Assembly: GCA_017468925.1 (NCBI GenBank)
Contig: JAFUHI010000009.1
Coordinates: forward strand, 274,162-338,161
From: Bacilli bacterium
Lineage (GTDB): Bacteria > Bacillota_I > Bacilli_A > RFN20 > CAG-826
Direction: 5' to 3'
Length of the DNA: 64,000 nucleotides
Both the position numbers and the translations under genes were made by a program. The notes beneath the pieces are model-generated. The model was not told where the DNA came from. It worked only from the letters and a program-made list of their open reading frames with translations, and ran no database searches. Of this stretch, positions 15,752 through 37,850 are shown piece by piece (position 1 is the stretch's first letter; every line of letters begins with the position of its first letter).

Positions 15752-15765
15752 ATGAAAGGAAAATT

Positions 15766-17013
15766 ATGAGCACAAAGCAAGCTTACGAACTAGCCAAAGC
15801 GGAATACGCGAAATATGGCGTTGACACCGACAAGGCTTTAGAAGCGATGGAGAAAGTCGTTATTTCGCTTCACTGCTGGCAAGGAGACGATGTCAGAGGA
15901 TTTTTATTTAATGACGAGTTGTCTGGCGGCATCCAAACCACTGGAAATTACCCAGGCAGAGCGAGAACCATACAGGAACTAAGAAATGATTTGGAGAAAG
16001 TTCTTTCTTTGCTCCCCGGTCACTTCAAAGTCAATCTCCACGCGATTTACGCGGACACCAAAGAAAAGATTGATTTGGATCAATTAGAGCCAAAGCATTT
16101 CGCTTCTTGGGTCGAATGGGCCAAAAAGAACCATGTTGGACTTGATTTCAATCCAACTTGCTTCTCCCATCCAAAAGCCTCCAGCGGCTTCACTTTATCA
16201 AGCAATGACCCAGAAATCAGGAAATTCTGGATTGAGCACTGCAAAAGAAGCAGAAAGATCGGTGAATATTTCGGCCGTGAATTAGGCGAGCCATGCGTCA
16301 CCAACATTTGGGTGCCAGACGGCATGAAAGATACTCCAATCGATAGATTAGCCCCGAGAAAGAGACTCATGGAATCTCTTGATGAAATCTTGGAAGAGAA
16401 GATTGATCCAAAATACAATATTGATTCAGTCGAATCAAAATTATTCGGAATCGGCGTAGAATCCTACACTACTGGAAGCAATGAATTCTATATGGGATAT
16501 GCCACATCAAGACAAATCTCTTTGACGCTTGATTCTGGCCATTTCCATCCGACCGAAGTCATTTCCGATAAGATTCCTACAGTCTTGCTATACGTCCCAC
16601 ATTTGCTTCTCCACGTCTCTAGACCAGTGAGGTGGGATAGCGATCACGTTGTCGTCTTGGATGATGAATTAAACGAGATTGCTAGAAGCTTAGTGAGAAA
16701 CAACCTTATCGAGAAAACTTCGATTGGCCTTGATTATTTCGATGCCTCAATCAATAGAATCGCTGCATGGGTCATCGGTGTCAGAGCAACATTGACCGCT
16801 ATATTGAAAGCCTATTTGGATCCAATCGATTATTTGATGAAGGTCGAAAACGAAGGCAATTACACCGACAGATTGTTCTTGCAGGAAAGATTGAAGCAAC
16901 TCCCATATGGTGTTGTCTTTGATTATTATTGCGAGAAGCACGGCGTTAAGATTGGCCAAGATGCGCTCGATGAAATTCATAAATACGAGAAAGAAGTAAC
17001 TTCAAGGAGATAA
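15766..17013 (+). CDS. rhaA: L-rhamnose isomerase
   Basis: 415 aa protein. Length and the N-terminal region ([20 protein letters not shown]...LHCWQGDDV) match RhaA, which is about 419 aa. Lies directly downstream of the kinase. Confidence 0.85.
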
Positions 17014-17571: not shown

Positions 17572-20100
17572 ATGCAAAAGTTTTACACAGAAAAAATCCA
17601 AAAGAGCGATCGTATAACGAGACTTGTAGATAACCTTTTCAAGAAAATGCCAGAGGTAGAAGCGGCTAGGGCTGTTTTGCTTACTGAATCATATAAGCAA
17701 ACAGAAAATGAACCAATCATTACTCGCCGCGGAAAAGCCTTTGCTCATATTCTTGATAACATTCCAATCATCATCCGCGATGAGGAATTGATTGTCGGTT
17801 CGACTACGTTAGCGCCAAGAGGTTGTCAAACATATCCAGAATTCTCCTATGAGTGGCTTGAAGCGGAATTCGACACCTTATCAACTAGGGTTGCCGACCC
17901 ATTCTATATTTCCGAAGAGACGAAGAAGACCCTCAAGGAAGTCAATAAATATTGGAAAGGCAAAACGACATCGGAACTCGCCATCTCTTACATGGATCCT
18001 AGAGCCTATACCGCTTTCTTGCATGAGATGTATACGACTGGCAATTATTTCTTCAACGGCGTTGGCCATATAACCGTCAATTATCCGAAAGTCATCAAAT
18101 ATGGATATCGCAGCATCATAAATGAGGCTTTGGAGGCCAAATCAAAATTGACTTTCTCCGATGCAGATTATCCAACTAGAATTGCTTTCTTGGATGCGGT
18201 CATAACATCGCTCAAGGCTGTTATTAGATACGCTAATAGATACAGCGAATTGGCCAAAAAGATGGCGGATGAGACAAATGATTCCAAACGCAGAGCCGAA
18301 TTATTGGAGATATCAAGAATCACCGCGAAAGTTCCTGAATATGGCGCGGAATCATTCTATGAGGCTTGCCAATCATTCTGGTTTGTCCAGCAATTATTGC
18401 AGCTTGAATCTTCAGGACATTCAATTTCCCCAGGCAGATTCGACCAATACATGTATCCATATTTCAAGAATGATTTTGATAAAGGCTTAATAACCAGAGA
18501 ATACGCTCAAGAATTATTGGATTGCATCTGGGTTAAACTCAACGATTTGAATAAATGCCGCGACTGCGTAAGCGCCGAAGGATTCGCGGGATATTCCTTA
18601 TTCCAAAACCTTATTGTCGGCGGTCAAGACGTAAACGGAGTTGATGCCACGAACGATTTGTCCTTCATGTGCATCACTGCTACAGAGCATGTCTTCTTGC
18701 CACAGCCAAGCTTCTCAATCCGCGTATGGAACGGATCGCCTCATTCATTGCTTATTAGAGCCGCTGATCTTACTAGAACCGGAATCGGCTTCCCAGCGTA
18801 TTACAACGATGAAGTCATTATTCCTCAATTAATATCACGCGGATTAAGCGTGCAAGATGCTAGAGACTATAACATCATCGGCTGCGTTGAACCTCAGAAG
18901 GCATTCAAGACCGAAGGATGGCACGATGCCGCATTCTTCAATATGTGCCGTCCACTAGAACTTGTCTTCTCCAACGGCGTTGATAAAGGCGTTCAAATCG
19001 GACCAAAGACAGGAGATGTCAGCACGTTTGATACATACGAGAAATTCGAGAACGCTTATAGAACCCAGATCAATTTCTTCATTCAATGCCTTGTCAATTC
19101 AATTAATTCAATTGATTACGCGCATAGAACCAGATGCCCATTGCCATTCGAATCATCGATGGTAGAGGATTGCATCGGTAGGGGCAAAGCCTTGCAAGAA
19201 GGTGGAGCCATCTACAATTTCTCCGGTCCTCAAGGATTTGGTGTCGCCAATATGGCGGATGCCATGTGGGCGATAAAGACACTCGTCTACGAGCAAAAGA
19301 AATACACCATCGAATTCTACAAAGAAGCGCTTGAAAACAATTATGGCGAAATGATGGATGAGCACCACGCCGAGAAATTGACCAAGGAAATTGTCAAAAA
19401 GCTCGCCGAAACTGGCAAAAACGTTAATAGAGAAGACATCATAAACATCTTCAATATGGTCAGAGAAAACAAATGCTCGCCAGAAAAGAAAGAAGCCTAT
19501 AGACGTCTAAAAGAAGACATCGAGGCTCTACCAAAATATGGAAACGACATCGAGGAGATAGACAACTTCGCACGCGAAATAACCTATTGTTATACGCGCC
19601 CGATGGAGCAATATAGAAACCCACGTGGAGGTATCTTCCAAGCGGGATTGTATCCTGTTAGTGCCAACGTGTTACTAGGTTCGCAAACCGGCCCAACACC
19701 GGATGCAAGACTTGGCTATACTCCTGTTGCCGATGGGGTCTCCCCAGCCGCCGGAAGAGATGTAAATGGACCAACTGCAGCATGTAATTCCGTCTCGCAT
19801 TTAGACCATTTCATCGCCTCAAACGGCACATTATTCAACATGAAATTCCACCCAACCGCGCTTGCGGGCACCCAGGGTTTAGAGAATTTCGTCTCTTTGG
19901 TCAGGGGTTACTTTGACCGCAAAGGCACGCACATGCAATTCAATGTCGTGTCCAGAGAGACGTTAAGGGATGCGCAAAAGCACCCAGAAAAATACAAGGG
20001 CTTAGTGGTCAGAGTTGCTGGCTATAGTGCCCTATTCACCACGTTATCCCGCGCCTTGCAGGATGATATCATAAGCCGCACCGAACAAGGAGAATTCTGA
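17572..20100 (+). CDS. Glycyl radical enzyme, probably B12-independent 1,2-propanediol dehydratase (PFL-like family)
   Basis: Has the C-terminal glycyl-radical motif RVAGYSALF and a PFL-like fold of about 842 aa. The computed ORF started at 17464 inside a G/T-only tract. The start was moved to the Met (MQKFYTEK) that is preceded by an AGGAAG ribosome-binding site. The substrate assignment is inferred from the neighbouring rhaBA genes, aldolase, PduP/PduL and BMC shell genes (GRM5-like). A choline TMA-lyase cannot be fully excluded from sequence alone. Confidence 0.85.
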   Translation: MQKFYTEKIQKSDRITRLVDNLFKKMPEVEAARAVLLTESYKQTENEPIITRRGKAFAHILDNIPIIIRDEELIVGSTTLAPRGCQTYPEFSYEWLEAEFDTLSTRVADPFYISEETKKTLKEVNKYWKGKTTSELAISYMDPRAYTAFLHEMYTTGNYFFNGVGHITVNYPKVIKYGYRSIINEALEAKSKLTFSDADYPTRIAFLDAVITSLKAVIRYANRYSELAKKMADETNDSKRRAELLEISRITAKVPEYGAESFYEACQSFWFVQQLLQLESSGHSISPGRFDQYMYPYFKNDFDKGLITREYAQELLDCIWVKLNDLNKCRDCVSAEGFAGYSLFQNLIVGGQDVNGVDATNDLSFMCITATEHVFLPQPSFSIRVWNGSPHSLLIRAADLTRTGIGFPAYYNDEVIIPQLISRGLSVQDARDYNIIGCVEPQKAFKTEGWHDAAFFNMCRPLELVFSNGVDKGVQIGPKTGDVSTFDTYEKFENAYRTQINFFIQCLVNSINSIDYAHRTRCPLPFESSMVEDCIGRGKALQEGGAIYNFSGPQGFGVANMADAMWAIKTLVYEQKKYTIEFYKEALENNYGEMMDEHHAEKLTKEIVKKLAETGKNVNREDIINIFNMVRENKCSPEKKEAYRRLKEDIEALPKYGNDIEEIDNFAREITYCYTRPMEQYRNPRGGIFQAGLYPVSANVLLGSQTGPTPDARLGYTPVADGVSPAAGRDVNGPTAACNSVSHLDHFIASNGTLFNMKFHPTALAGTQGLENFVSLVRGYFDRKGTHMQFNVVSRETLRDAQKHPEKYKGLVVRVAGYSALFTTLSRALQDDIISRTEQGEF

Positions 20101-20885
20101 TGGACGATTATCTTAAAACATCAGGAAGGATATTCGATATTCAACGATTCTCCGTCCACGATGGCCCTGGCATCAGAACGATAGTCTTCTTCAAAGGATG
20201 CTATCTAAGATGCAGATGGTGCTGCAACCCAGAAGGTCAGGAATTCTTCCCCCAGGAGCTGACGATGAATGGCAAAACCAAAACAGTCGGCAGAGACATT
20301 ACGGTGGAAGAAATCCTAGACATCGTTGAGAAAGACCGCATCTATTACAAAAGAAGCGGCGGCGGGCTCACGATATCCGGGGGCGAATGTCTAGGACAGG
20401 CTGACTTCGCTAGAGACCTTCTAAGAGGGGCTAAAGAAAGAGGCATTAACACAGCGATCGAATCAACTGGATTCGCTCCATGGGAGAAGATTGAGCCTCT
20501 AATCCCATATCTAGATGTCTATTTGATGGACATCAAACATATGGATTCCGCCAAACACAAAAGCTTCACCTCCCAACCAAACGAATTGATTCTTGAAAAC
20601 GCGAGGAAAATCGCCAAGAACTTCAAGAAATTGATCGTGAGAACGCCTGTCATCCCAACCTTCAATGACACAGAGGATGAGATAAGGGCTATAGCGAGAT
20701 ACGCCAAATCAATCGGGGTGGAGGAGATGCATTTGCTCCCATACCACAGACTAGGCAAAGACAAATATTATGGCCTTGGCAGAACATATTCCTTGGAGGA
20801 GATAGAACCTCCATCTAAAGAAAAGATGAACGCATTGCTCGACGTCGTTCTGCAAGAAGGGTTAAAAGGGCAGAAAGGAGGTTAA
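20100..20885 (+). CDS. Glycyl radical enzyme activating enzyme (radical SAM)
   Basis: 261 aa protein. Has the CX3CX2C radical-SAM motif (CYLRCRWCCNPEG) and a glycine-rich SAM site (GGGLTISGGE). Its start overlaps the GRE stop. Confidence 0.85.
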   Translation: MDDYLKTSGRIFDIQRFSVHDGPGIRTIVFFKGCYLRCRWCCNPEGQEFFPQELTMNGKTKTVGRDITVEEILDIVEKDRIYYKRSGGGLTISGGECLGQADFARDLLRGAKERGINTAIESTGFAPWEKIEPLIPYLDVYLMDIKHMDSAKHKSFTSQPNELILENARKIAKNFKKLIVRTPVIPTFNDTEDEIRAIARYAKSIGVEEMHLLPYHRLGKDKYYGLGRTYSLEEIEPPSKEKMNALLDVVLQEGLKGQKGG

Positions 20886-21265
20886 TGATGGAATTCGATA
20901 AACTTCAATCAAACGAGACGAAGACAAGGATTATTCAGGAAAGCGTTCCTGGAAAGCAAATAACGCTCGCTCATATCATCGCCAATCCAGATGAATTGCT
21001 CTATCGCAAGCTTGGGCTCGATCCGAATGTCGAATACGCATCAAAAGCAATCGGCATCATGACATTATGCCCATCAGAGACAGCGATAATCGCCGCCGAC
21101 ATATGCATGAAAGCAAGTGGTGCGAGAATGGGATTCGTCGATAGATTCTCAGGCACCGTCATCATCACCGGCACGGTATCCGAGGTCGAGGCATCGCTTA
21201 AAGCGGTCATGGAATTCTGCACTTACACATTGCGCTTCACCGTTTGCGACATAACGAAGACATAA
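20885..21265 (+). CDS. BMC shell protein, circularly permuted BMC domain (EutS/PduU type)
   Basis: 126 aa protein. The N-terminus (RIIQESVPGKQITLAHIIANPDELLYRKLGL) closely resembles the EutS/PduU N-terminal region. Confidence 0.7.
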   Translation: MMEFDKLQSNETKTRIIQESVPGKQITLAHIIANPDELLYRKLGLDPNVEYASKAIGIMTLCPSETAIIAADICMKASGARMGFVDRFSGTVIITGTVSEVEASLKAVMEFCTYTLRFTVCDITKT

Positions 21266-21711
21266 TGAGAAAAATCATATTCATAGGTCGAAGCGGCGTA
21301 GGCAAAACAACCCTCAAGCAGGCCTTGCGAAAGGAAAAAATAGAATATAAGAAAACACAATATATCGATTGGCAAGATTGGATCATAGACACCCCTGGGG
21401 AATATTGCGAAAACAAAAACCTCGGATGCGCCTTAGGTCTATACGCCTATGAGTCCGATGTCGTTGGACTCCTAGTGGCCGCCAACGAATGGTATTCCCT
21501 CTTCTCCCCGAATATGGTGGGGATGGTGAGCAGGGAATGCGTAGGGATCGTCACCAAGTGCGACTTGGCCGATCCATCTAGGGCAGAACAGTGGCTTAGG
21601 CTAACTGGATGCAAAAAAATATTCCACGTCAATTCGTTGACGGGAGAAGGAGTAGAAGAATTAATCGAATACCTCAAAATCGATAAACCTCGATATTACG
21701 ATTACGAATAA
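21265..21711 (+). CDS. EutP/PduV-family small GTPase
   Basis: Has a P-loop (GRSGVGKTTL) and a DTPGE switch. Its size and the BMC context are typical of EutP/PduV. The start was moved to the Met that overlaps the upstream stop (MRKIIFIG). Confidence 0.7.
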   Translation: MRKIIFIGRSGVGKTTLKQALRKEKIEYKKTQYIDWQDWIIDTPGEYCENKNLGCALGLYAYESDVVGLLVAANEWYSLFSPNMVGMVSRECVGIVTKCDLADPSRAEQWLRLTGCKKIFHVNSLTGEGVEELIEYLKIDKPRYYDYE

Positions 21712-21722
21712 GGAGAAAAATT

Positions 21723-22532
21723 ATGGTTATCAAAAACGAGTACGAAATCAAGAAAGAGATCTGTGAAATCGGAAAAAGGATCTACAACCGCGGTATGGTT
21801 GCCGCAAACGATGGAAACATCTCAGTCAAATTGAATGATCACGAATTCCTTTGCACCCCAACCGGTGTCTCAAAAGGATTCATGACCCCAGAAATGATCT
21901 GCAAGGTCAATGAGAAAGGCGAAGTCATCGAGGCCCGTGCCCCCTATAAGCCAAGCAGCGAAATCAAGATGCATATGCGCGTCTATGAAAGAAGAAAAGA
22001 TGTAGGCGCAGTCGTTCACGCTCACCCACTATATGCGACAACATTCGCTATCGCTGGCCAAGCTTTGACTCAGCCAATCATGCCAGAGGCCGTTATCTCT
22101 TTAGGATGTGTCCCTCTAGCAAAATATGGCAGACCATCCACTGAAGAAATTCCAGACTCCATCGAAGAATACTTGCCATATTTCGACGCAGTTCTTTTGG
22201 CACAGCATGGTGCGCTGACCTGGTCTGATACATTGCTCAATGCCTATATGAAAATGGAATCGGTCGATTTCTACGCCCAGCTTCTATATCAAACAAAGCA
22301 GATTGGCGGGCCAAAGGAATTCACCCCAGAGCAAGTCGAGGAACTTTACGAAATAAGACGCAAATTCGGCATGAAAGGAAAGCATCCTGCCAATGTCTGT
22401 TTGCGTGTCAAAGAAGGTAAGCCTTCTTGCCATGGATGTGGTGGAACATGCAAGAGCCACCCAAATACTTCAAGCTCTGATAGCGAGTTGGTTGAAGAGA
22501 TCACCAAGCGCGTCATGGCCGCACTTAAATAA
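21723..22532 (+). CDS. Class II aldolase (L-fuculose-/L-rhamnulose-1-phosphate aldolase family) with Cys-rich linker and C-terminal encapsulation-peptide-like helix
   Basis: 269 aa protein. The class II aldolase/adducin fold shows the zinc-binding His cluster (VVHAHPLYAT). About 50 extra C-terminal residues contain CHGCGGTC followed by the amphipathic SELVEEITKRVMAALK. Confidence 0.8.
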   Translation: MVIKNEYEIKKEICEIGKRIYNRGMVAANDGNISVKLNDHEFLCTPTGVSKGFMTPEMICKVNEKGEVIEARAPYKPSSEIKMHMRVYERRKDVGAVVHAHPLYATTFAIAGQALTQPIMPEAVISLGCVPLAKYGRPSTEEIPDSIEEYLPYFDAVLLAQHGALTWSDTLLNAYMKMESVDFYAQLLYQTKQIGGPKEFTPEQVEELYEIRRKFGMKGKHPANVCLRVKEGKPSCHGCGGTCKSHPNTSSSDSELVEEITKRVMAALK

Positions 22533-22543
22533 AGAAGGATTTT

Positions 22544-23023
22544 ATGAATCAGGCGGATATCAAAGAGAATGTAAGGAAGGTTGTCGAAGAATATTTTCGT
22601 CCAACCGAAGATATGACTCTTTTTTCCGCCATCCAATTAGCGAGAAAAGTCAAAGAAAAAGCGCTAGAGATGGGAGTTAACGCCGTCATCGCAATCGCCA
22701 ATAAAGGCGGAAATCCGGTATTGGTCGAATGCATGGATAATTCCTATATCGCAAGCTATGACATCGCCTTCAACAAGGCGTATACCGTAGTCGCATTAAA
22801 GATGTCGACCAAGAAACTCGCTAAATTAGCATCACCAAACGGCTCCTTATATGGCATCCAATTCACAAACGGTGGAAGGATTGTCATATTCGGTGGCGGA
22901 GAGCCTTTAGAGAATAAAAAAGGACAAATCATCGGCGGAGTCGGCATAAGCGGAGGAAGCGAAGAGCAAGATACCGCTTTAGCAGCATTCGCAAAAGAAA
23001 CATTTGAGAAAGGAGTGAATTGA
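22544..23023 (+). CDS. GlcG/DUF336 (PduO C-terminal domain-like, possible heme-binding) protein
   Basis: 159 aa protein. The DUF336 pattern includes the conserved GG...G(I/V)SG segment (IIGGVGISGGSEEQD). Such proteins are common in pdu/eut-type loci. Confidence 0.6.
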   Translation: MNQADIKENVRKVVEEYFRPTEDMTLFSAIQLARKVKEKALEMGVNAVIAIANKGGNPVLVECMDNSYIASYDIAFNKAYTVVALKMSTKKLAKLASPNGSLYGIQFTNGGRIVIFGGGEPLENKKGQIIGGVGISGGSEEQDTALAAFAKETFEKGVN

Positions 23024-23024
23024 A

Positions 23025-24233
23025 ATGGACGTCAATTCATACGAAATCGAAGAGCTTGTCAAGAAAGTACTAGGCGAGCTTAGCGGGGTAAAATCCCCAA
23101 ATAGAAGCGTCTCAAACCAAGCGATACCAACCAAAGCCCATGTCGCTTATTTGACCGCTTTGGAGAAATTCGAGGTTAAAGAGGTCGATGTTCCTCCAGT
23201 CGGCGATGACGATATTTTAGTCAAAGTTGAAGGCTGTGGAATATGCGGCACCGACGCACACGAATTCAGGAAAGATCCCTTTGGTCTTATTCCAGTTGTT
23301 TTAGGTCATGAAGGAACTGGCGAAATCATCAAAATGGGCAAGAACGTCAAGCTCGATAGCGCTGGCAAACCATTAAATATCGGCGATAAAGTCGTCACTT
23401 GCATGATCTTCAAAGATAACCCAGACATCACGATGTTTGACCTCAATAAACAGAATGTCGGAGGCGCTGATGTCTATGGTTTATTGAAGGATGACGATCC
23501 AAATAACCACCTTAAAGGCTGGTTCTCGGATTATATCCTTATAAAAGGTGGCTCCACCGTCTTCAATGTGTCGGATTTAGATTTAGAAAGCCGCATATTG
23601 ATTGAGCCATGCGCCGTTTTGATCCACGCGGTTGAAAGAGCTAAAACCACAGGAATTCTAAGATTCAATTCACGCGTTGTCGTCCAAGGCGTAGGCCCAA
23701 TTGGACTTATCTGCGTTGCGGTTTTAAGAACATTAGGCATCGAAAACATCTGCGCGGTCGATGGCAATAATAAGCGCCTTGAATTCGCTAAAAAGATGGG
23801 TGCGACCAAGACCGTCAATTTCACCGAATACAAAGGAATCGAAGCTTTATCCGGAGCAGTCAAAGACGCATTCGATGGGCATTTAGCGGATTTTGCTTTC
23901 CAATGCACCGGTGCGCCAGGAGGCCATAGCAATATCTATAAATTCATCCGCAATGGCGGAGGCTTATGCGAATTAGGCTTCTTCATCAATGGGGGAGACG
24001 CCACGATCAATCCGCATTTCGATATCTGCTCTAAAGAAATCACAATCGTCGGTAGCTGGGTCTATACCTTAAGAGACTACGCCACGACATTTGATTTCTT
24101 GAAGAGGAGCCAAGCCATCGGTTTACCGATGAAAGAGCTCATCACCCACAAATTCCCATTGGCGGAAATCAATGAAGCAATGCAGGTGAATCTACGTCAA
24201 GAAGGATTCAAGATTGCTATCGTTAACAAATAA
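23025..24233 (+). CDS. Zinc-dependent alcohol dehydrogenase (MDR superfamily) with N-terminal encapsulation-peptide-like extension
   Basis: 402 aa protein. Has the catalytic-Zn motif GHEGTGEI, the structural-Zn/CxxC region (CGICGTDAHE) and a Rossmann GxGxxG (VQGVGPIGL). About 45 extra N-terminal residues begin with the amphipathic SYEIEELVKKVLGEL, followed by a Ser/Pro linker. Confidence 0.8.
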   Translation: MDVNSYEIEELVKKVLGELSGVKSPNRSVSNQAIPTKAHVAYLTALEKFEVKEVDVPPVGDDDILVKVEGCGICGTDAHEFRKDPFGLIPVVLGHEGTGEIIKMGKNVKLDSAGKPLNIGDKVVTCMIFKDNPDITMFDLNKQNVGGADVYGLLKDDDPNNHLKGWFSDYILIKGGSTVFNVSDLDLESRILIEPCAVLIHAVERAKTTGILRFNSRVVVQGVGPIGLICVAVLRTLGIENICAVDGNNKRLEFAKKMGATKTVNFTEYKGIEALSGAVKDAFDGHLADFAFQCTGAPGGHSNIYKFIRNGGGLCELGFFINGGDATINPHFDICSKEITIVGSWVYTLRDYATTFDFLKRSQAIGLPMKELITHKFPLAEINEAMQVNLRQEGFKIAIVNK

Positions 24234-24236
24234 GGA

Positions 24237-24557
24237 ATGAATATGCATCAAGCAGTAGGAATGGTTGAAGTTTATGGACTTGTCGCAGCCTTCGCCGCAT
24301 GCGATGCCGGATGCAAAGCTGGCAACGTCACGGTAGAGAGGTTCGACAAGAACAAGCCGGCAAATGCCGATTCTTTGCCTGTCCCTCTTCTTGTATGCGT
24401 TAAATTCAGAGGTCGCGTAAGTGACGTCGAAGCCGCAGTAGAAGCCGCTTTAGATGCCGCTAAACGCGTCAGCGGGATCGTTACTTACCACATCATCCCG
24501 CAGGCTGAGGAAGATACGGAGAAGATGCTGAAATTATCAGCATTTGACGTTGATTAG
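24237..24557 (+). CDS. Divergent BMC-H (single BMC domain) shell protein with an inserted loop
   Basis: 106 aa protein. The BMC-domain core (VGMVEVYGLVAAFAACDAGCKAGNV) aligns to the canonical [25 protein letters not shown]. The canonical GSG pore motif is replaced by an insertion of about 14 aa (FDKNKPANADSLPVP). Two Cys residues (ACDAGC) are present. Confidence 0.6.
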   Translation: MNMHQAVGMVEVYGLVAAFAACDAGCKAGNVTVERFDKNKPANADSLPVPLLVCVKFRGRVSDVEAAVEAALDAAKRVSGIVTYHIIPQAEEDTEKMLKLSAFDVD

Positions 24558-24565
24558 GAGCGAAT

Positions 24566-24901
24566 ATGAGCAGGAATGCATTGGGATTCATAGAAACCTC
24601 AGGTGTAGTGGCTGCCATAGACGCTCTCGACATCATGGTCAAAAGCGCCAATGTGCGCTTCGTAACTTGGGAGAGGAAATTAGGTGGCAGACTAGTCACA
24701 ATCATCGTTGAAGGTGAAGTGGCTGCAGTCAATTCAGCGGTTGAAAACGCCTGCAATAGGTCGATAAAAAAACCGGCTGCCCACCTGGTCTTAGCTTCGC
24801 CCCACGAAGAGACATGGCGCATGGTTGAGATTAGCGCTTCTAGGCTCAAGAAGAAAGAAAAAGCTCAGCAAGAAGAAGGTTATCAAGACGTTCACTTCTG
24901 A
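24566..24901 (+). CDS. BMC-H shell protein with basic C-terminal tail
   Basis: 111 aa protein. Has a BMC domain ([25 protein letters not shown]) with an RKLGGRLV pore region. Carries a Lys-rich C-terminal extension of about 20 aa ([19 protein letters not shown]). Confidence 0.7.
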
Positions 24902-24912
24902 TAAAGGAAGGA

Positions 24913-25415
24913 AAGGAGGAGAGACAAATGGCACAACTCGAAGCATTAGGCATGGTTGAGACCAGAGGACTCGTCGCGGCTATCGAGGCCGCCGATGCCA
25001 TGGTCAAGGCTGCCAACGTGACCCTCATCGGCACCGAGAAAATCGGTAGCGGATTGGTGTCGGTCATGGTCCGCGGAGATGTCGGAGCAGTTCAAGCTGC
25101 GACAGAAGCGGGAGGCGCTAGAGCGCAAAAGCTTGGCGAAGTGATTGCGATTCACGTAATCCCACGCCCACATTCAGATGTCGAGAGGATCTTACCGACC
25201 CTCAAGCATAAAGAAGACTAAATAGGAGGAGAGACAAATGGCACAACTCGAAGCATTAGGCATGGTTGAGACCAGAGGACTCGTCGCGGCTATCGAGGCC
25301 GCCGATGCCATGGTCAAGGCTGCCAACGTGACCCTCATCGGCACCGAGAAGATCGGTAGCGGATTGGTGTCGGTCATGGTCCGCGGAGATGTCGGCGCGG
25401 TCAATGCAGCGACCG
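24913..25415 (+). repeat. Tandem direct duplication spanning the RBS and 5' ~175 nt of two pduA-like genes
   Basis: Seen directly. A block of about 190 nt including the ribosome-binding site (GGAGGAGAGACAAATGGCACAACTCGAAGC...GGTCCGCGGAGATGTCGG) occurs at 24913-25102 and again at 25223-25412. The two copies differ by a single A/G. Sequence downstream of the block has diverged. Confidence 0.9.
24928..25221 (+). CDS. pduA: BMC-H shell protein, PduA/PduJ type (copy 1)
   Basis: 97 aa protein. Canonical throughout: [55 protein letters not shown]...[14 protein letters not shown]. Confidence 0.88.
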
Positions 25416-25519
25416 AGGCTGGCGGAAACGCGGCTAGGAAGCTTGGCGAAGTGATCGCAGTCCACGTGATCCCACGCCCACACTCAGATGTCGAGAAGAT
25501 CTTACCGAAATTAGGTTAA
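25238..25519 (+). CDS. pduA: BMC-H shell protein, PduA/PduJ type (copy 2, tandem paralog)
   Basis: 93 aa protein. Its first 58 residues are identical to copy 1. The C-terminal third has diverged. Confidence 0.88.
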
Positions 25520-25589
25520 TCTTCACCTTGAAATCCCCGCCGCGACGCTTTGTTGCGGTGGGGTTATGGACACAGAAAGGAAGAAGCAA

Positions 25590-25871
25590 ATGATCGTAGG
25601 GAAAGTTATTGGTAGCGTAGTGTCTACCCGTAAAATGAACTCTTTGGTCGGAAGTAAACTTATGGTCGTTGAGCCTTTATCCGCGACCGAGGGTCCGAAA
25701 GAGAAAATCATCGCAATCGATAATATCGGTGCTGGCATCGGCGAGACAGTTTTGCTCGCTACCGGAAGCGCCGCTAGAATCGGTTCAAATATGCCTGATT
25801 CGCCAATCGATGCCGCAATAGTCGGTATCATCGACGATGAGATAGGCCTTAAAGGAGCCAATCTGTATTGA
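25590..25871 (+). CDS. BMC vertex pentamer protein (BMC-P; EutN/PduN/CcmL family)
   Basis: Has the N-terminal MIVGKVIGSVVST pattern of EutN/PduN, and is about 93 aa. The start was moved to the internal Met that is preceded by an AGGAAG ribosome-binding site. Confidence 0.75.
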   Translation: MIVGKVIGSVVSTRKMNSLVGSKLMVVEPLSATEGPKEKIIAIDNIGAGIGETVLLATGSAARIGSNMPDSPIDAAIVGIIDDEIGLKGANLY

Positions 25872-27196
25872 TGGATTTTGACGGTCTTAAACAATTGATG
25901 CGCGATAATGGCATCGTCGGTTGCGGCGGTGCTGGGTTTCCAAGTTATGCGAAACTCAATGACAAGGCAGATACCTTGATCATCAATTGCGCCGAATGCG
26001 AGCCGCTTTTGCGCTTGCATCGCCAGCTTATTGAAGTTAGGGCAAAAGAGATTGTCGAGACCGCCTCATTCATCGCAAAAACGATTGGCGCCAAAGAGGT
26101 CGTAATAGGCATCAAGGCCGCCTATAAAAAAGCGGTCGCCGCCTTAAGGAATCAAATAGGCGACTCAAATTTTGTTAGAATCCATCTTTTGCCTGAAGTT
26201 TATCCAGCAGGAGATGAATTGGTTCTAATCTATGAGACGACAAAAAGGGTGATTAGGCCAGGCCAATTGCCCGCAAGCGTCAACGTGCTCGTGTATAACG
26301 TTGAGACAATATATAACGTCTATCGCGCTTTGCATGGGCACCCTGTCACCCATAAATTCGTGACGGTCACAGGAGAAGTAAACCAGCCAGAAACATTCTA
26401 CGCCCCAATAGGAAGCAAGATATTCGGTTTGGTGAAACGCTCCGGAGGGCAGAAGATCGATGACCCAGCCTTCCTGATCGGTGGACCGATGATGGGATTC
26501 CTTGGAAGCGATCAAGACGTCGTTACCAAGACCACAAACGCCATCATTGTTTTGCCTAAGGACCACCCAGTGGTTTTAAGGAAGAAAATGAAGCCGAGAA
26601 TCGACCTAAAAAGAGCGATGGCCGCTTGCTCACAATGCAGTTATTGCACCGACATGTGCCCAAGGCATATGTTAGGCCATCCTATCGATCCAGCGGCCTT
26701 CATGAGAGTGGTCTCCAATCAAGATGCGCATAACGTAGGCCCATACCTCAACGCGAGATATTGTTCATCATGCGGGGTGTGTGAAGCTTATGCTTGCCAT
26801 CAGGGGTTATCGCCACGCATATTGCTAGGATTTGTTAAAAACAACATCCGGGCAAGCGGGATTAAATATCCAGATTATGATGGACCAGTCGTTCCAGATG
26901 AAGAAATGGATTTTAGGCGAGTTCCATTAAAAAGGCTCGTCGCCAGGCTTGATTTGGAGAAATACGCTGACCCAGCACCGATTTACGAAGAGCCAATCAA
27001 CGCGAAAGAAGTGGATATCAAATTACTTCAGCACGTTGGCAAAAAAGCAATACCAGTCGTCAAAATCAATGATCATGTTAAAGAGGGCGATATAATCGCC
27101 CATTACGATGATACATCGTTATCTGTCAATATACATGCATCGATCGATGGAACAGTGAGTGAAATCACAAGCACATACATAAGGATAAGAAAATAA
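25868..27196 (+). CDS. pduS: PduS-like RnfC-family Fe-S flavoprotein
   Basis: 442 aa protein. Has an RnfC/NqrA-like N-terminal region (GCGGAGFPSYAKL) and two Cys clusters (CSQCSYCTDMCP; CSSCGVCEAYAC) as in PduS. Lies in the BMC operon. Confidence 0.7.
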   Translation: MMDFDGLKQLMRDNGIVGCGGAGFPSYAKLNDKADTLIINCAECEPLLRLHRQLIEVRAKEIVETASFIAKTIGAKEVVIGIKAAYKKAVAALRNQIGDSNFVRIHLLPEVYPAGDELVLIYETTKRVIRPGQLPASVNVLVYNVETIYNVYRALHGHPVTHKFVTVTGEVNQPETFYAPIGSKIFGLVKRSGGQKIDDPAFLIGGPMMGFLGSDQDVVTKTTNAIIVLPKDHPVVLRKKMKPRIDLKRAMAACSQCSYCTDMCPRHMLGHPIDPAAFMRVVSNQDAHNVGPYLNARYCSSCGVCEAYACHQGLSPRILLGFVKNNIRASGIKYPDYDGPVVPDEEMDFRRVPLKRLVARLDLEKYADPAPIYEEPINAKEVDIKLLQHVGKKAIPVVKINDHVKEGDIIAHYDDTSLSVNIHASIDGTVSEITSTYIRIRK

Positions 27197-27204
27197 TAAG
27201 CAAA

Positions 27205-27756
27205 ATGGCAAAGGCAATTGGACTAATAGAATATAAGACCGTATCTAGCGGTATGACCGCCACCGATATAATGGCAAAGTCCGCGGATATCGAGATATTG
27301 CAAGCCGAGACGGTGTGTCCAGGCAAATATTTCGCATTGGTCGAAGGCGAAGTCGCCGCAGTCCAATCTGCCGTTAATGCCGCCAAAAAAGCCATCCCCG
27401 AGAAATTAATCGATGATTTTGTTTTAGGCAATCCGCATGAATCGATATTCCGCGCCATCTGGGGAACAACAGAAGTTGATCAACCTGAAGCGCTAGGGAT
27501 ATTAGAGACATATTCAATTGCCCAAGCTATTGTCGGGGCGGATATTGCCGCCAAGGCTGCAGACGTCAAACTCATCGAATTAAGGCTAGGAAGAGGGATG
27601 TGTGGAAAATCATATCTATTAATCACCGGCCAAGTGGCGGCAGTGACGATGGCTATAGAAAAGGCCAAATCCAGCGCCGGCGAATACGGTATGTATTTAG
27701 ATAGCTCCGTAATCGCTAGACCGGATATGAAGGCCTGGAGAAAATTCGTGATGTAA
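27205..27756 (+). CDS. pduT: BMC-T shell protein (tandem BMC domains), PduT type with putative Fe-S-ligating pore cysteine
   Basis: 183 aa protein with two BMC domains (IGLIEYKTVSSG...; LGILETYSIAQAIVGADIAAKAADV). Cys in CPGKYF matches the position of the 4Fe-4S ligand in PduT. Confidence 0.8.
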   Translation: MAKAIGLIEYKTVSSGMTATDIMAKSADIEILQAETVCPGKYFALVEGEVAAVQSAVNAAKKAIPEKLIDDFVLGNPHESIFRAIWGTTEVDQPEALGILETYSIAQAIVGADIAAKAADVKLIELRLGRGMCGKSYLLITGQVAAVTMAIEKAKSSAGEYGMYLDSSVIARPDMKAWRKFVM

Positions 27757-27764
27757 GGAAAATT

Positions 27765-28553
27765 ATGTTTAGTTTAGAGAGGCGAAACTTAATAATCCAA
27801 AGGCTCAATCTTGAAGGCCGCATCATCGTTTCCGATTTGTCCAAAGAATTCAATGTGACAGAAGAGACGATTAGACGCGACATCGAGAAGCTTGAGCTTG
27901 AAGGATTAGCCACCAAAACATATGGTGGTGCGGTTTCGACCAGCTCCCAAAATAGAGATTTGCCTTACAAAATAAGAAAGAAATCAAATGTAGAATCGAA
28001 ACAGAGAATCGCCGCTAGAGTCGCTCAGATGATCAACGATGGCGATCAATTGATGTTTGATGCTTCCTCGACATCTTTGTATGTCGTAAGGCAAATAAAG
28101 CATCTAAATAACATCACAATCATAACGAATTCCATCGAGATTATGTTGGAGTTAGGCGATAAAACCGGATGGAATATTCTATCGACCGGAGGATCGCTTA
28201 GAGAAGGGGCGTATTCTCTTTCTGGCTCCTCAGCCGAAAGAATGATACGCGACCACCATGTCGATTTGGCAATTTGCAGCGCCAAAGGAATAGATGGAAT
28301 TATGGGTATCACCGAAAGCAATGAGAAGGATGCTGAAATCAAAAAAGCAATCTTCTCTGCTGCGACAAAGCGAATCCTAGCGATTGACCATTCCAAATTC
28401 GATAAAATATCGTTCATCAAAGTATGCGACATCAAAGATGTCGATGTAATAGTCACAGATAAAAACCCAGGCATGGCGTGGGAGAGAAGAATCTCCGATA
28501 GCAGAGCCGAGTTGATTGTATATGGAGAAAAAAATGAGAATACTAGTAATTAA
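27765..28553 (+). CDS. DeoR/GlpR-family transcriptional regulator
   Basis: 262 aa protein. Has an N-terminal HTH (RRNLIIQRLNLEGRIIVSDLSKEFNVTEETIRRDIEKLE) and a C-terminal DeoR sugar-phosphate-binding domain. Confidence 0.8.
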   Translation: MFSLERRNLIIQRLNLEGRIIVSDLSKEFNVTEETIRRDIEKLELEGLATKTYGGAVSTSSQNRDLPYKIRKKSNVESKQRIAARVAQMINDGDQLMFDASSTSLYVVRQIKHLNNITIITNSIEIMLELGDKTGWNILSTGGSLREGAYSLSGSSAERMIRDHHVDLAICSAKGIDGIMGITESNEKDAEIKKAIFSAATKRILAIDHSKFDKISFIKVCDIKDVDVIVTDKNPGMAWERRISDSRAELIVYGEKNENTSN

Positions 28554-29733
28554 TTCAGGGTCTTCATCACTCAAATATCAATTGTTTGAGATGAATTCCG
28601 GCAAAATCCTCGCCAAAGGTTTATGTGAAAGAATCGGAACCGATGGTTTTATAACGCATAAAGTCCCAGGAAAAGAGGATTATAGCTCCTCAAAGGATTT
28701 CCCAACCCATTATGAAGCGTTAAGTGAAGTCTTCTCATTATTGGTTGATAAAGAGAAAGGTGTATTGAAATCCATCGATGAAATAGATGCGGTTGGACAC
28801 CGTGTCGCCCATGGCGGGGAAAGATTCAAAGAATCATCTATCGTCAATGAGGATATGATCTCTTATCTCGAATCAATCGTTCCAATCAACCCGCTTCATG
28901 GCCCGGCCGCCATCAAAGGTATGAAAGCCTGCCTTGAATTGCTCCCAAATACACCGCAGACAGCGACATTTGACACATCATTTTATTCTTCATTTAAGAA
29001 AAGCCGCTTTATCTATGGCTTGCCTTATGAATGCTATGAAAAAGATGGGGTTAGAAGATATGGCTTCCATGGAACTAGCCATCGTTTTGTAAGCGCCCAA
29101 GCTGCTGAATACTTAAATAAACCGATAACATCTTTAAAGATAATTACCTGCCACTTAGGAAATGGCAGTTCGATAAGTGCGGTGGAAAATGGCGTTGCCA
29201 TCGATACCACGATGGGATTCACCCCACAGGAAGGGATAATCATGGGAACAAGAAGTGGCAGTATTGACCCAACCATCATCCCTTACCTCATGAAGAAGAG
29301 AAATCTAAATCCCGATCAAATGACGGATTTATTAAATAAACAATCAGGACTTTTGGGAATAAGCGGCATTTCAAATGATCTAAGGAATTGCGTTGAAGCC
29401 GCTTCAAAAGGAAACGAGAGAGCTCAATTAGCCTTGGATATCCTAACCGACGGTGTCAAAAAATATATCGGTGGATTCGCCGCGCTTATGAATGGGCTTG
29501 ATGTATTGGTCTTCACCGCTGGAATCGGCGAGAATTCCACAATTGCTCGTGAAATGATTTGCGACAAAATGGACTACCTAGGCATAAAGATAGATAAAGA
29601 AAAGAACAATAATTTCAGAAGAGGCGTGATCGAAGATATATCTGCAGCCGATTCAAAAGTAAAAATATTAGTCATTCCTACAAATGAGGAATACATGATA
29701 GCTTTGGATACCCAAAAACTAGTCAATCGATAA
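28534..29733 (+). CDS. Acetate/propionate kinase (PduW-like)
   Basis: The MRILVINSGSSSLKYQLF N-terminus is the acetate-kinase signature. Start moved to the Met that follows a GGAGAAAAAA ribosome-binding site. Confidence 0.85.
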   Translation: MRILVINSGSSSLKYQLFEMNSGKILAKGLCERIGTDGFITHKVPGKEDYSSSKDFPTHYEALSEVFSLLVDKEKGVLKSIDEIDAVGHRVAHGGERFKESSIVNEDMISYLESIVPINPLHGPAAIKGMKACLELLPNTPQTATFDTSFYSSFKKSRFIYGLPYECYEKDGVRRYGFHGTSHRFVSAQAAEYLNKPITSLKIITCHLGNGSSISAVENGVAIDTTMGFTPQEGIIMGTRSGSIDPTIIPYLMKKRNLNPDQMTDLLNKQSGLLGISGISNDLRNCVEAASKGNERAQLALDILTDGVKKYIGGFAALMNGLDVLVFTAGIGENSTIAREMICDKMDYLGIKIDKEKNNNFRRGVIEDISAADSKVKILVIPTNEEYMIALDTQKLVNR

Positions 29734-29745
29734 GGAGGCGTTATT

Positions 29746-31197
29746 ATGGCAAACATCGATGAAAGACAAGTAAAAGAAATAATTGAACGCATTGTTAAGG
29801 AATATAAAGGGGCGGATACTACACCAAGCACCGGCTACACACCAACCTCTTACAATGGTCGTAAGTTCATCGGCATTTTTTCCGATATGAATGAAGCGAT
29901 AGAGGCAGCCAATAAAGGATATCAAGCAATCCGTTCAATGAGCGTTGAGCAAAGAGAGAAAATAATCACAGAGATTAGAAAACTTACTAGGGAAGAAGCT
30001 TGGACTTTAGCGGAGATTGGTGTTTCTGAAACCCATATGGGAAGAGTAGAGCACAAGAGGCTCAAACATATCCTTGTCGCTGATAAAACACCAGGCACCG
30101 AAGATATAGTGAGCAACGCCAAAACTGGTGATAACGGCCTCACTCTTATCGAAATGGCACCATTTGGTATTGTCGGAAGCATCACCCCATCCACAAACCC
30201 AAGCGAAACAGTCATCTGCAACTCAATCGGCATGATTGCCGCGGGGAATGGGGTCGTTTTTAATCCACATCCAAATGCGGTCTGCACATCGAACTATGCG
30301 GTTGATTTAGTCAATAGAGCTTGCAAAGCTGCAGGTGGCCCAGAGATTTTGGTCGCCTCAATGGATAAACCAACAATGGAATCGAGCGCAGTGATGATGA
30401 AACATCCTCTAATAAAATTATTGGTCTGCACAGGAGGTCCTGGAGTAGTCAAAGCCGTATTAAGCAGTGGCAAGAAAGCGATTGGGGCTGGAGCAGGAAA
30501 TCCACCTGTCATTGTGGATGATACAGCCGATATTGCTAAAGCCGCCAAAGACATAATCGATGGCTGCACATTCGATAACAACCTACCTTGCATCGCCGAA
30601 AAAGAAGTCTTCGTTTTCAACAATGTCGCTGACGATTTGATTAGAGGCATGAAAAAGGCTGGATCATATGAGATAAACCGTGCCCAAGCCGATCAATTGG
30701 CGAAAATAGTGCTTGTGTCCAAAACCGGAAAAGACGGAAAAGTAACCAAATCAGTCAATAGGGATTGCGTTGGTAGAGACGCCAAAGTCTTGCTTGAGAA
30801 AATCGGCATTCACGTTGGCGATGAGATAAGATGTATCATCGCAGAAGTTCCATTCGAGCATGATTTCGTCCAAAATGAGCTTATGATGCCAATCCTTGGA
30901 ATCGTCAGAGTCAGAAATATTGATGAAGCAATCGATCTAGCTTGCAAGGCGGAAGGAGGCAGAAGGCATTCCGCTCACATGCATTCAAAGAATATCGATA
31001 ACCTATCTAGATTCGCCAAAGCAGTAGAAACAACAATCTTTGTGAAGAATGCACCAAGTTACGCCGGCATTGGTTTTGGTGGCGAAGGCCACACGACTTT
31101 CACGATCGCTGGCCCAACTGGGGAAGGCATCACATCCGCTAAAAGCTTCACTAGACAAAGACGCTGCGTTATGGCGGATAGTTTCAGAATCATTTAA
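29746..31197 (+). CDS. pduP: CoA-acylating aldehyde dehydrogenase (PduP/EutE family) with N-terminal encapsulation peptide
   Basis: 483 aa protein. ALDH superfamily with a catalytic Cys context (FDNNLPCIAEKE). The N-terminal amphipathic ERQVKEIIERIVKEY is followed by a Thr/Pro/Ser linker. Confidence 0.85.
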   Translation: MANIDERQVKEIIERIVKEYKGADTTPSTGYTPTSYNGRKFIGIFSDMNEAIEAANKGYQAIRSMSVEQREKIITEIRKLTREEAWTLAEIGVSETHMGRVEHKRLKHILVADKTPGTEDIVSNAKTGDNGLTLIEMAPFGIVGSITPSTNPSETVICNSIGMIAAGNGVVFNPHPNAVCTSNYAVDLVNRACKAAGGPEILVASMDKPTMESSAVMMKHPLIKLLVCTGGPGVVKAVLSSGKKAIGAGAGNPPVIVDDTADIAKAAKDIIDGCTFDNNLPCIAEKEVFVFNNVADDLIRGMKKAGSYEINRAQADQLAKIVLVSKTGKDGKVTKSVNRDCVGRDAKVLLEKIGIHVGDEIRCIIAEVPFEHDFVQNELMMPILGIVRVRNIDEAIDLACKAEGGRRHSAHMHSKNIDNLSRFAKAVETTIFVKNAPSYAGIGFGGEGHTTFTIAGPTGEGITSAKSFTRQRRCVMADSFRII

Positions 31198-31221
31198 AAA
31201 GAAGGGAGTTTTGCGGGGTTT

Positions 31222-31893
31222 ATGGACCAAAAACAGATTGAAAGCATCGTTAGAGATGTTTTGAATGAATACAAAAACGGAAGCAAAATATCTACCTCTA
31301 GTGATTTTGGCGATATCCCAGTCGGCGTTTCAGCTCGCCATATCCATCTCACCCAGGAACATGTAGATATTCTTTTTGGAAAGGGATATCAGCTAACCAA
31401 ACTTAAAGATCTTTCTCAGCCAGGCCAATTCGCCTGCAAAGAACAATTGACTTTAATCGGCCCTTCCTTGAAGGCGATCGAAGGAGTGAGAGTCCTTGGG
31501 CCAGTTAGAAAAAAATCACAGGTCGAAATATCGAAAACTGACTCATTTGTCCTCAAGGTCAATCCGCCGGTCAGAGAAAGCGGCGATGTGGAGGGAAGTG
31601 CCCCAATCACCATCCTAGGGCCAAAAGGCGTAGTGGAACTTAAAGAAGGATGCATTCTCGCCAACCGTCATATTCATATGTCTCCTGCGGACGCTCAAAG
31701 ATTCGGCGTCAAAGATGGTGATTATGTAGCTACCGATACGGTTGGAAATGGAAAAAGAACAACTTTATGGGATGTCCAAATAAGGGTTTCTGACAAATTT
31801 GTGTTGGAGATGCATCTAGATACAGATGATGCAAATGCCTGTGGCATTGGAAATGGTTCCAAAGTAAAATTGATAAAGAACAAGGAGAGGTAA
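31222..31893 (+). CDS. pduL: Phosphate propanoyltransferase PduL with N-terminal encapsulation peptide
   Basis: 223 aa protein. Two PduL-repeat His blocks (GVSARHIHLTQEHVD; ANRHIHMSPADAQRFG). The N-terminus is QKQIESIVRDVLNEY followed by a Ser-rich linker. Confidence 0.8.
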   Translation: MDQKQIESIVRDVLNEYKNGSKISTSSDFGDIPVGVSARHIHLTQEHVDILFGKGYQLTKLKDLSQPGQFACKEQLTLIGPSLKAIEGVRVLGPVRKKSQVEISKTDSFVLKVNPPVRESGDVEGSAPITILGPKGVVELKEGCILANRHIHMSPADAQRFGVKDGDYVATDTVGNGKRTTLWDVQIRVSDKFVLEMHLDTDDANACGIGNGSKVKLIKNKER

Positions 31894-31898
31894 AAGCC

Positions 31899-32303: not shown

Positions 32304-32320
32304 TTTCTTAAAAGAAGATA

Positions 32321-32349
32321 AAACCGCTACAGATTGTGGCGGTTTTTTG
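32321..32349 (+). terminator. Rho-independent terminator closing the BMC operon
   Basis: Hairpin AAACCGC-tacagattgtg-GCGGTTT followed by a T-run, 18 nt after the ArsR-like stop. Confidence 0.6.
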
Positions 32350-32396
32350 TTGCCCTCTTCCAATCTTGTTCATAAAATAAAGACAAGAGGTATTAT

Positions 32397-33924: not shown

Positions 33925-34015
33925 AGATTATATGCCAAATAGTGCGGTTTTAAAATCGTCAGTTATTTCTCGGGATATGAAAACACCTTTTTAAGGTGTA
34001 TCATATCAACATCGT

Positions 34016-37847: not shown

Positions 37848-37850
37848 AAC

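Follow-up and report, generated by a model that had tools for sequence, protein, structure and literature searches.

Loci of the GRM5 class, which are glycyl radical microcompartments (GRM) for fucose and rhamnose, carry a zinc-type dehydrogenase from the superfamily of medium-chain dehydrogenases/reductases (MDR) instead of PduQ (Petit 2013, PMC3557285; Axen 2014; Ferlez 2019, PMC6325248). GRM3 and GRM4 start from propanediol and use an iron-type alcohol dehydrogenase (Fe-ADH), and the zinc enzyme is restricted to the GRM subtype with an aldolase step (Axen 2014; Ferlez 2019, PMC6325248). Here we describe a zinc-type alcohol dehydrogenase (Zn-ADH) encoded on a 64-kb stretch of DNA from a Bacilli bacterium (contig JAFUHI010000009.1; this whole stretch is called the window). 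A first-pass annotation of the sequence had set the enzyme apart from GRM systems, which were said normally to use Fe-ADH; this is correct for the other GRM subtypes but not for GRM5, where Zn-ADH is a regular component. The zinc-type enzyme in place of the iron-type enzyme is already known as the normal condition for GRM5 and has been in the literature since 2013-2014, and the window adds a member, not a new idea.

The role of the enzyme has been described in two ways. In one study it was taken as the propanol dehydrogenase and lactaldehyde reduction was given to a PduS homologue (Petit 2013, PMC3557285), while the same protein (pfam00107 + pfam08240) was named lactaldehyde reductase in others (Ferlez 2019, PMC6325248; Zarzycki 2017, PMC5311937). 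Fucose or rhamnose induces the locus of Clostridium (Lachnoclostridium) phytofermentans, Cphy_1179 included, 45- to 73-fold (PMC3557285, Table 1), and this species forms propanol as well as propionate (PMC3557285). Compartment formation and induction by fucose and rhamnose have been demonstrated only in C. phytofermentans (PMC3557285).

Our analysis indicates that the Zn-ADH of the window is very probably the NADH-dependent aldehyde reductase of a GRM5 compartment for L-rhamnose/L-fucose catabolism. To the published picture we add three small points, namely a predicted canonical encapsulation peptide (EP) on an alcohol dehydrogenase of a bacterial microcompartment (BMC), the apparent loss of the structural-zinc site, and the co-occurrence with untargeted Fe-ADHs in some related loci. 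GRM5 compartments are common in gut Clostridia, where propionate and propanol arise from host- and diet-derived fucose and rhamnose, and the identity of the enzyme that closes the internal NADH cycle matters for flux modelling and for synthetic compartment engineering.

The Zn-ADH gene and its catalytic core

The Zn-ADH open reading frame (ORF; 23025..24233, forward strand) begins with ATG one nucleotide past the stop codon of a DUF336 gene, is preceded by an AGGAG Shine-Dalgarno sequence about 10 nt 5' of the ATG, and encodes 402 amino acids plus a stop. Pfam assigned both MDR domains to the product, ADH_N at residues 60-175 (E = 1.8e-12) and ADH_zinc_N at residues 225-360 (E = 4.9e-22). The gene is real and conserved: a large protein database holds 7515 homologues (E <= 1e-3), with 78-93% identity among the top 120. 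An identical protein is encoded on 7 metagenome contigs, one of them 572 kb long, which places the window in an uncultured organism. The closest solved structure is Thermotoga TM0436 (1vj0; phmmer E = 6.4e-38, Foldseek E = 3.4e-24), followed in the structure searches by threonine, sorbitol and xylitol dehydrogenases. The features recognised within the protein are as follows.

23037..23081, forward strand: predicted encapsulation-peptide helix, residues 5-19 (SYEIEELVKKVLGEL), from AlphaFold2, hydrophobic moment and conserved pattern
23082..23132, forward strand: poorly conserved linker, residues 20-36 (pLDDT below 50 at residues 21-31; homologue alignment)
23235..23264, forward strand: CGICGTDAHE motif, residues 71-80, with C74 as predicted catalytic-zinc ligand; aligns with GVCGSD (1vj0) and with GICGSD in the xylitol dehydrogenase 7y9p
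23304..23327, forward strand: GHEGTGEI motif, residues 94-101, with H95 and E96 as predicted catalytic-zinc ligands; aligns with LGHEGAG / LGHESAG of solved structures
23388..23480, forward strand: structural-zinc lobe in degenerate form, residues 122-152, where C126 is the sole Cys in place of the usual four; 1vj0 and 7y9p show C..C..C.......C here
23604..23612, forward strand: E194-P195-C196, with E194 at the position of the fourth zinc ligand of the polyol/threonine-dehydrogenase type; LIEPCAV aligns with LVEPLSV of xylitol dehydrogenase
23688..23762, forward strand: Rossmann GxGxxG (G222, G224, G227), with D246 where beta-2 ends (homologue alignment)

To judge the conservation of these residues, 196 unique full-length homologues (76-93% identity to Zn-ADH) were aligned. 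C74, H95, E96, E194, P195, G222, G224, G227 and D246 are invariant (196/196), and C196 is kept in 192/196. The predicted ligand set of the catalytic zinc is C74/H95/E96/E194, through which the protein would bind the metal, and by homology Zn-ADH is a zinc-type MDR enzyme of the polyol/threonine-dehydrogenase-like branch. An acidic residue at the end of Rossmann beta-2 favours NAD(H) under the general rules for this fold, and because D246 occupies that position, the sequence suggests NAD(H) over NADP(H) as cofactor.

The structural-zinc lobe shows a different pattern. Exactly one Cys was found there in 196/196 homologues, compared with at least four lobe Cys in 68/70 distant full-length representatives that have the GHE motif, and P0128, a relative with 55% identity, retains CGTCDACLNTPARTNLC in this region. 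On these alignments the structural-zinc lobe is lost in the compartment-associated clade and kept in its non-compartment relatives. Some genuine MDR enzymes, mammalian sorbitol dehydrogenase among them, also have no structural Cys4 site, and a protein without it can still belong to the family.

A predicted N-terminal encapsulation peptide

The catalytic core starts at residue 37 in the AlphaFold2 model, and the alignment with 1vj0 also starts at query residue 37. Residues 1-36 precede the alignment start of all solved structures. The first-pass annotation had proposed a targeting helix at the N-terminus, which agrees with both sequence and model: a helix is predicted at residues 5-19, with a hydrophobic moment of 0.54 (within the highest 4.2% of all 14-mers in the proteins of the operon), and its pattern I-E-x-I-V-K/R-x-V-L is conserved among the homologues (more loosely written, I-E-x-I-V-x-x-V-L). 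The linker behind it is rich in S/A/P/G and varies in length. Four other proteins of the operon carry the same type of motif, the aldehyde dehydrogenase (AldDH), PduL and DUF336 N-terminally and the aldolase C-terminally, with hydrophobic moments of 0.81 for AldDH, 0.69 for DUF336 and 0.66 for PduL. The N-terminus of Zn-ADH thus fits the published definition of an EP, a helix followed by a variable linker, as far as sequence and model can tell, and the enzyme would be carried into the shell by it.

An N-terminal extension is absent from 70/80 distant full-length relatives, and the fragmentary, 55% identical P0128 and P0131 begin at the equivalent of residue 38. Because the distant relatives mostly lack the extension and have at least four lobe Cys, both the gain of the peptide and the loss of the structural zinc appear to go with the compartment-associated clade. 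The genomic context of P0128, the nearest relative that has no EP, was set aside as uninformative, being a low-coverage, apparently chimeric contig of 1.6 kb. Neither the EP of this clade nor its lost structural-zinc lobe was found stated in the literature on GRM5, the key 2015 GRM survey (Zarzycki et al., AEM) lying outside that comparison. Among the BMC alcohol dehydrogenases, those of the iron type were reported to have no obvious EP and piggy-backing was proposed for them, and a C-terminal EP was described on GRM5/PVM aldolases (Aussignargues 2015). The EP-like helix of the DUF336/HbpS-like protein suggests that this protein is compartment cargo too, in a compartment that is B12-independent.

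The locus and its class

The Zn-ADH gene lies in a single co-directional operon that spans 17572..33296, directly 3' of two rhamnose genes. As the first-pass annotation had described, it sits between the aldolase/DUF336 pair and the shell genes, a position recovered by Pfam searches of the neighbours. The genes are listed below; after PduL, an ArsR-type HTH gene and then an alpha/beta hydrolase gene end the operon.

14312..17013, forward strand: rhamnulokinase and L-rhamnose isomerase, which would feed the aldolase (FGGY domains; RhaA E = 6e-205; TIGR02627 rhamnulokinase match E = 8e-122, under the model's cutoff)
17572..20100, forward strand: glycyl radical enzyme (GRE), predicted 1,2-propanediol dehydratase (PFL-like E = 1.3e-232 and Gly_radical; TIGR01774 above cutoff)
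20100..20885, forward strand: GRE activating enzyme, radical SAM, short form without ferredoxin insertion (Radical_SAM and Fer4_12 only, 261 aa)
20885..21265, forward strand: BMC-domain shell protein, 126 aa (PF00936)
21244..21711, forward strand: PduV/EutP GTPase (PF10662, E = 5.7e-49)
21723..22532, forward strand: class II aldolase (fuculose/rhamnulose-1-P aldolase) with C-terminal EP-like helix ELVEEITKRVMAALK (PF00596, E = 2.9e-49)
22544..23023, forward strand: DUF336/HbpS-like protein with EP-like N-terminal helix IKENVRKVVEEYF (PF03928)
23025..24233, forward strand: zinc-type MDR alcohol dehydrogenase, the candidate GRM5 'AlcDH / lactaldehyde reductase' (Pfam ADH_N and ADH_zinc_N)
24237..25519, forward strand: four BMC-H shell genes (PF00936)
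25566..25871, forward strand: BMC-P (EutN/CcmL) vertex protein (PF03319)
25868..27196, forward strand: PduS-like flavo-FeS oxidoreductase (Complex1_51K, Fer4_17, RnfC_N)
27205..27756, forward strand: PduT-like tandem BMC-T shell protein (two BMC domains)
27765..28553, forward strand: DeoR-family regulator (HTH_DeoR and DeoRC)
28516..29733, forward strand: acetate/propionate kinase (PF00871, E = 1.8e-141)
29746..31197, forward strand: CoA-acylating aldehyde dehydrogenase (PduP-like) with N-terminal EP RQVKEIIERIVKEY (PF00171; NF011927, 667 bits vs cutoff 403)
31222..31893, forward strand: PduL phosphotransacylase with N-terminal EP KQIESIVRDVLNEY (PF06130, E = 3.7e-77)

Judged by gene content, the locus is a GRM5 glycyl-radical microcompartment for fucose/rhamnose, because its gene set matches that published for C. 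phytofermentans, Roseburia inulinivorans and Ruminococcus. It contains the GRE (PF02901 + PF01228), the activase (PF04055), the class II aldolase (PF00596) and, following the definition of Axen 2014 and Ferlez 2019, a PF00107 + PF08240 dehydrogenase rather than PF00465. The PduS and PduT homologues, DeoR, BMC-H and BMC-P are present as well, and the activase is of the kind without a ferredoxin insertion, which among activases was reported only from GRM5 (Ferlez 2019, PMC6325248). Since rhamnulokinase and L-rhamnose isomerase adjoin the operon, and neither a fucose isomerase nor a fuculokinase turned up in the window, the gene content hints at a rhamnose-specific version of the compartment locus.

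Distribution of Zn-ADH and the iron-type enzymes of related loci

A scan of species-representative genomes found at least 542 stretches that encode a relative of Zn-ADH, and the counts of gene context given here come from 80 loci that were kept; a locus was called evaluable when it had enough flanking sequence on the relevant side. The 80 loci belong to gut and rumen Clostridia, with titles that include Lachnotalea, Mediterraneibacter, Faecalimonas, Dorea, Marvinbryantia, Ruminococcus, Acutalibacteraceae and Pumilibacter, and the nearest protein match among the species-representative genomes is from a metagenome-assembled genome labelled Bacilli bacterium (87% identity). The aldolase is upstream of Zn-ADH in all evaluable loci (58/58), the GRE is present in 50/58 loci with enough upstream sequence, and a BMC-H gene follows within 1.5 kb downstream in 69/69. 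Two gene orders were observed, one like that of C. phytofermentans, in which AldDH directly precedes Zn-ADH and PduL lies among the shell genes, and one like that of the window, in which AldDH and PduL come after DeoR; both occur among homologues 76-81% identical to the Zn-ADH of the window. The clade is tight: an exhaustive search of representative proteins gave one full-length 50%-identity representative (P0121), the other matches above 50% are partial, and the next full-length relatives have at most 40% identity. The window is therefore a further member of a well-populated known class.

The first-pass annotation had also stated that the window has no Fe-ADH and had read Zn-ADH as a non-orthologous replacement. 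The absence is confirmed: no match to PF00465 was found among the 55 window ORFs of at least 150 aa in a Pfam scan of the 64 kb, and tblastn of Escherichia coli FucO (from NC_000913) against the six frames of the window gave a best E-value of 0.76, which is no real match. Zn-ADH resembles PduQ in its proposed function but stands outside the PduQ/EutG/FucO family of Fe-ADHs. The idea of replacement agrees with the published view of GRM5 loci, but it is not universal. A FucO-like Fe-ADH was identified in 15/80 related loci (L003, L004, L009, L012, L019, L021, L022, L025, L027, L040, L043, L044, L054, L076 and L080), on the same strand as Zn-ADH, after DeoR or PduT and about 4-7 kb downstream. 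These proteins have 375-382 aa where complete, are 31-36% identical to E. coli FucO, and have no extension at the N- or C-terminus, hence no EP. Iron-type genes were found in 0/34 loci with the gene order of the window, in 10/22 with the order of C. phytofermentans, and in 4 loci for which an AldDH gene was not observed. As 14/60 evaluable loci encode a FucO-like Fe-ADH beside Zn-ADH, the replacement is not absolute across GRM5; some organisms have both enzymes, and only the zinc enzyme is EP-tagged. The untargeted Fe-ADH in about a quarter of the evaluable sister loci bears on which step the zinc enzyme catalyses.

Proposed role of Zn-ADH

In the pathway that we propose, rhamnose isomerase and rhamnulokinase would give rhamnulose-1-phosphate, which the class II aldolase would cleave to dihydroxyacetone phosphate and L-lactaldehyde. 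Zn-ADH, which its amphipathic peptide at the N-terminus would bring into the shell, would reduce lactaldehyde with NADH to 1,2-propanediol, and the GRE would convert propanediol to propionaldehyde. Propionaldehyde would then be oxidised to propionyl-CoA by the PduP-like dehydrogenase, with regeneration of NADH, and PduL and the kinase would yield propionate and ATP. Zn-ADH would probably also reduce propionaldehyde to 1-propanol, and it would close the luminal NAD+/NADH cycle, as PduQ and EutG do in pdu and eut. We favour lactaldehyde as a substrate because the aldolase, which has a targeting peptide of its own, would release lactaldehyde in the lumen, because reduction of lactaldehyde uses exactly the NADH that comes from the step from propionaldehyde to propionyl-CoA, and because the zinc enzyme occurs only in the GRM subtype with an aldolase step. 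Propionaldehyde reduction to propanol may be a second activity.

Several points weigh against this assignment. The literature is divided on the substrate, as described above, and we found no biochemical assay of any member of the clade. Zn-ADH reaches no curated NCBIfam cutoff (best 128 bits vs 328), and its AlphaFold2 model is of moderate quality (pLDDT 69.8, pTM 0.72). This quality reflects a shallow input alignment (76-93% identity), and the model served solely to assign the fold and to delimit helix and linker at the N-terminus. Furthermore, an EP-like N-terminal helix is also found on the distant MDR relative P0143, which has no shell genes within 10 kb, so the helix alone is no proof of encapsulation. 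For naming, the NCBIfam labels of threonine, idonate and inosose dehydrogenases and phosphonate-associated ADH were rejected, all of them being below threshold.

Zn-ADH could instead be a dedicated 1-propanol dehydrogenase, a strict analogue of PduQ, with lactaldehyde reduced by the PduS homologue or by a cytosolic FucO-like Fe-ADH encoded elsewhere. This has the annotation of Petit 2013 and the propanol formed by C. phytofermentans besides propionate in its favour (PMC3557285), and the untargeted FucO-like Fe-ADH of 14/60 loci would fit a cytosolic lactaldehyde reductase beside an encapsulated Zn-ADH. However, if the aldolase is encapsulated through its C-terminal EP, lactaldehyde arises inside the shell, where Zn-ADH is the only EP-bearing NAD(H) reductase of the operon. 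Loci with the gene order of the window have no Fe-ADH of any kind (0/34), and Zn-ADH is confined to the GRM subtype with the aldolase step while GRM3/4 use Fe-ADH. As regards PduS, members of this family are flavin/FeS electron-transfer proteins that are not known to reduce aldehydes, which counts against PduS in this role. We consider a dedicated propanol dehydrogenase unlikely.

The location of the enzyme and its link to the pathway may also be doubted. Zn-ADH might be cytosolic, with the N-terminal helix as an oligomerisation or solubility element taken over from an ancestral MDR lineage. In favour of this, a distant MDR-like clade has the same type of helix, with P0143 placed in a sugar-acid operon that has no shell genes within 10 kb, and BMC alcohol dehydrogenases were reported to show no obvious EP, piggy-backing being proposed for them (Aussignargues 2015). 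However, P0243 and P0137 of the same distant clade are directly followed by BMC-H genes, the helix and linker fit the published EP definition and resemble the EPs of AldDH and PduL in the operon, and conservation holds for the helix but not for the freely varying linker, with no N-terminal extension in most distant relatives (70/80). A cytosolic enzyme is thus quite improbable. Still less credible, to the point of being very improbable, is that Zn-ADH merely travels with the operon and that its substrate is an unrelated one, for instance threonine, a polyol or a sugar alcohol. Its best likeness among curated families is to threonine, idonate and inosose dehydrogenases (all far under the cutoffs), and public annotations read 'threonine dehydrogenase' or 'zinc-binding dehydrogenase'; but in every evaluable locus the gene strictly keeps its place between aldolase and shell genes, Zn-ADH carries an EP, fucose and rhamnose induce the orthologue in C. 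phytofermentans together with its locus (PMC3557285), and nothing else encoded in the operon is a candidate for recycling NAD+. An encapsulated, NADH-dependent reductase of lactaldehyde, and possibly of propionaldehyde, remains our preferred reading of Zn-ADH.

A distant clade without zinc ligands

In addition to the compartment-associated clade, we observed nine distant representatives (26-35% identical by BLASTP) that have a similar N-terminal helix (e.g. MDLKIDDIVKQVLSEV) and have lost the catalytic zinc ligands, with GHE changed to GQQ, GKE or GTD and the cysteine of CGxCGTD gone. P0243 and P0137 are directly followed by BMC-H genes, and in this sister branch two such genes sometimes follow. 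Besides IclR and DUF386, the operons of P0243 and P0143 encode an aldolase of the DHDPS type, an MR_MLE dehydratase and a GntP permease, and P0154 is preceded by a DHDPS-type aldolase (loci of the clade: L092:5939-7673, L090:352-1800 and L085:10001-11152). This clade may belong to another, uncatalogued compartment-linked system.

More speculatively, EP-tagged MDR oxidoreductases could form a larger radiation that has not been described. The Zn-ADH of GRM5 would then be a branch of it whose recruitment went along with remodelling of the structural-zinc lobe and in which lactaldehyde and propionaldehyde are both reduced by one enzyme. The sister branch (P0137, P0143, P0154, P0195, P0243 and others), with the helix kept and the zinc ligands lost, could then mark an uncatalogued compartment type for the catabolism of non-phosphorylated deoxy-sugar acids that also yields lactaldehyde. 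From the sequences at hand we regard this wider scheme as rather improbable.

Further observations on the window

The GRE ORF called by the program starts upstream of the gene, and its segment 17464-17571 encodes 36 implausibly hydrophobic leading residues (MLVFVGFMLVFF...). Translation probably begins at the ATG at 17572 (MQKFYTEK) and not at 17464, which gives 842 aa; the gene call on the related contig L084 also has 842 aa, in support of this start. The gap between rhaA and the GRE gene (about 450 nt to the program-made ORF and about 560 nt to the corrected start) contained no Rfam match at gathering thresholds. The program-made AckA ORF overlaps the 3' end of deoR by 38 nt, and AckA, AldDH and PduL all lie downstream of DeoR (28516-33296). 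Within the flanks of the 80 related loci, AckA was seen in 8/80, the ArsR gene in 1 and the alpha/beta hydrolase gene in 0.

Outside the operon, a large cluster for cell-surface polysaccharide biosynthesis lies on its 3' side (33298-52025), encoding epimerases, dehydratases and glycosyltransferases along with a sugar transferase, a Wzy-like polymerase and a UDP-sugar dehydrogenase, among others. The whole 64-kb window gave 0 Rfam matches at gathering thresholds, and 0 tRNA and 0 tmRNA genes were found by ARAGORN and Rfam; smpB is nevertheless present at 56167-56637, in a stretch of 64 kb with no tmRNA gene.

Comparison with known systems

The closest described counterparts of Zn-ADH are Cphy_1179 of C. 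phytofermentans and ABC25529 of Roseburia inulinivorans, which have the same Pfam pair (PF08240 + PF00107) and belong to the same locus class; orthology with them rests on locus architecture and family, not on pairwise alignment. Their loci have nearly the order of the window, namely GRE, activase, BMC, aldolase, [AldDH], Zn-ADH, BMC-H genes, [PduL], EutN, PduS, PduT and DeoR. The window differs in that AldDH and PduL come after DeoR and acetate kinase instead of flanking Zn-ADH, and in the presence of DUF336 and PduV.

With PduQ, EutG and FucO (PF00465), the shared element is the proposed role, the NADH-dependent reduction of an aldehyde that recycles NAD+ for the acylating AldDH of a metabolosome, and FucO reduces lactaldehyde. 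Fold and metal are unrelated, with no detectable similarity, and the predicted canonical EP of Zn-ADH contrasts with the BMC Fe-ADHs, reported to be without an obvious one (Aussignargues 2015). TM0436 (1vj0) and the polyol/threonine branch of MDR enzymes have in common with Zn-ADH the two-domain fold, the Cys/His/Glu zinc motif, the Glu position of the 'EP' dipeptide and GxGxxG. Identity to this branch is about 27-33%; Zn-ADH adds 36 residues of predicted encapsulation peptide and linker and is without the Cys4 lobe, and 1vj0 has no acidic residue at the position of Asp246. Similarly, the lactate/malate-dehydrogenase-type reductase of the PVM microcompartment is a non-iron solution to NAD+ recycling in an aldolase-containing fucose/rhamnose compartment. 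That enzyme belongs to a different dehydrogenase family, however, and the PVM compartment processes lactaldehyde directly, without a glycyl radical enzyme.

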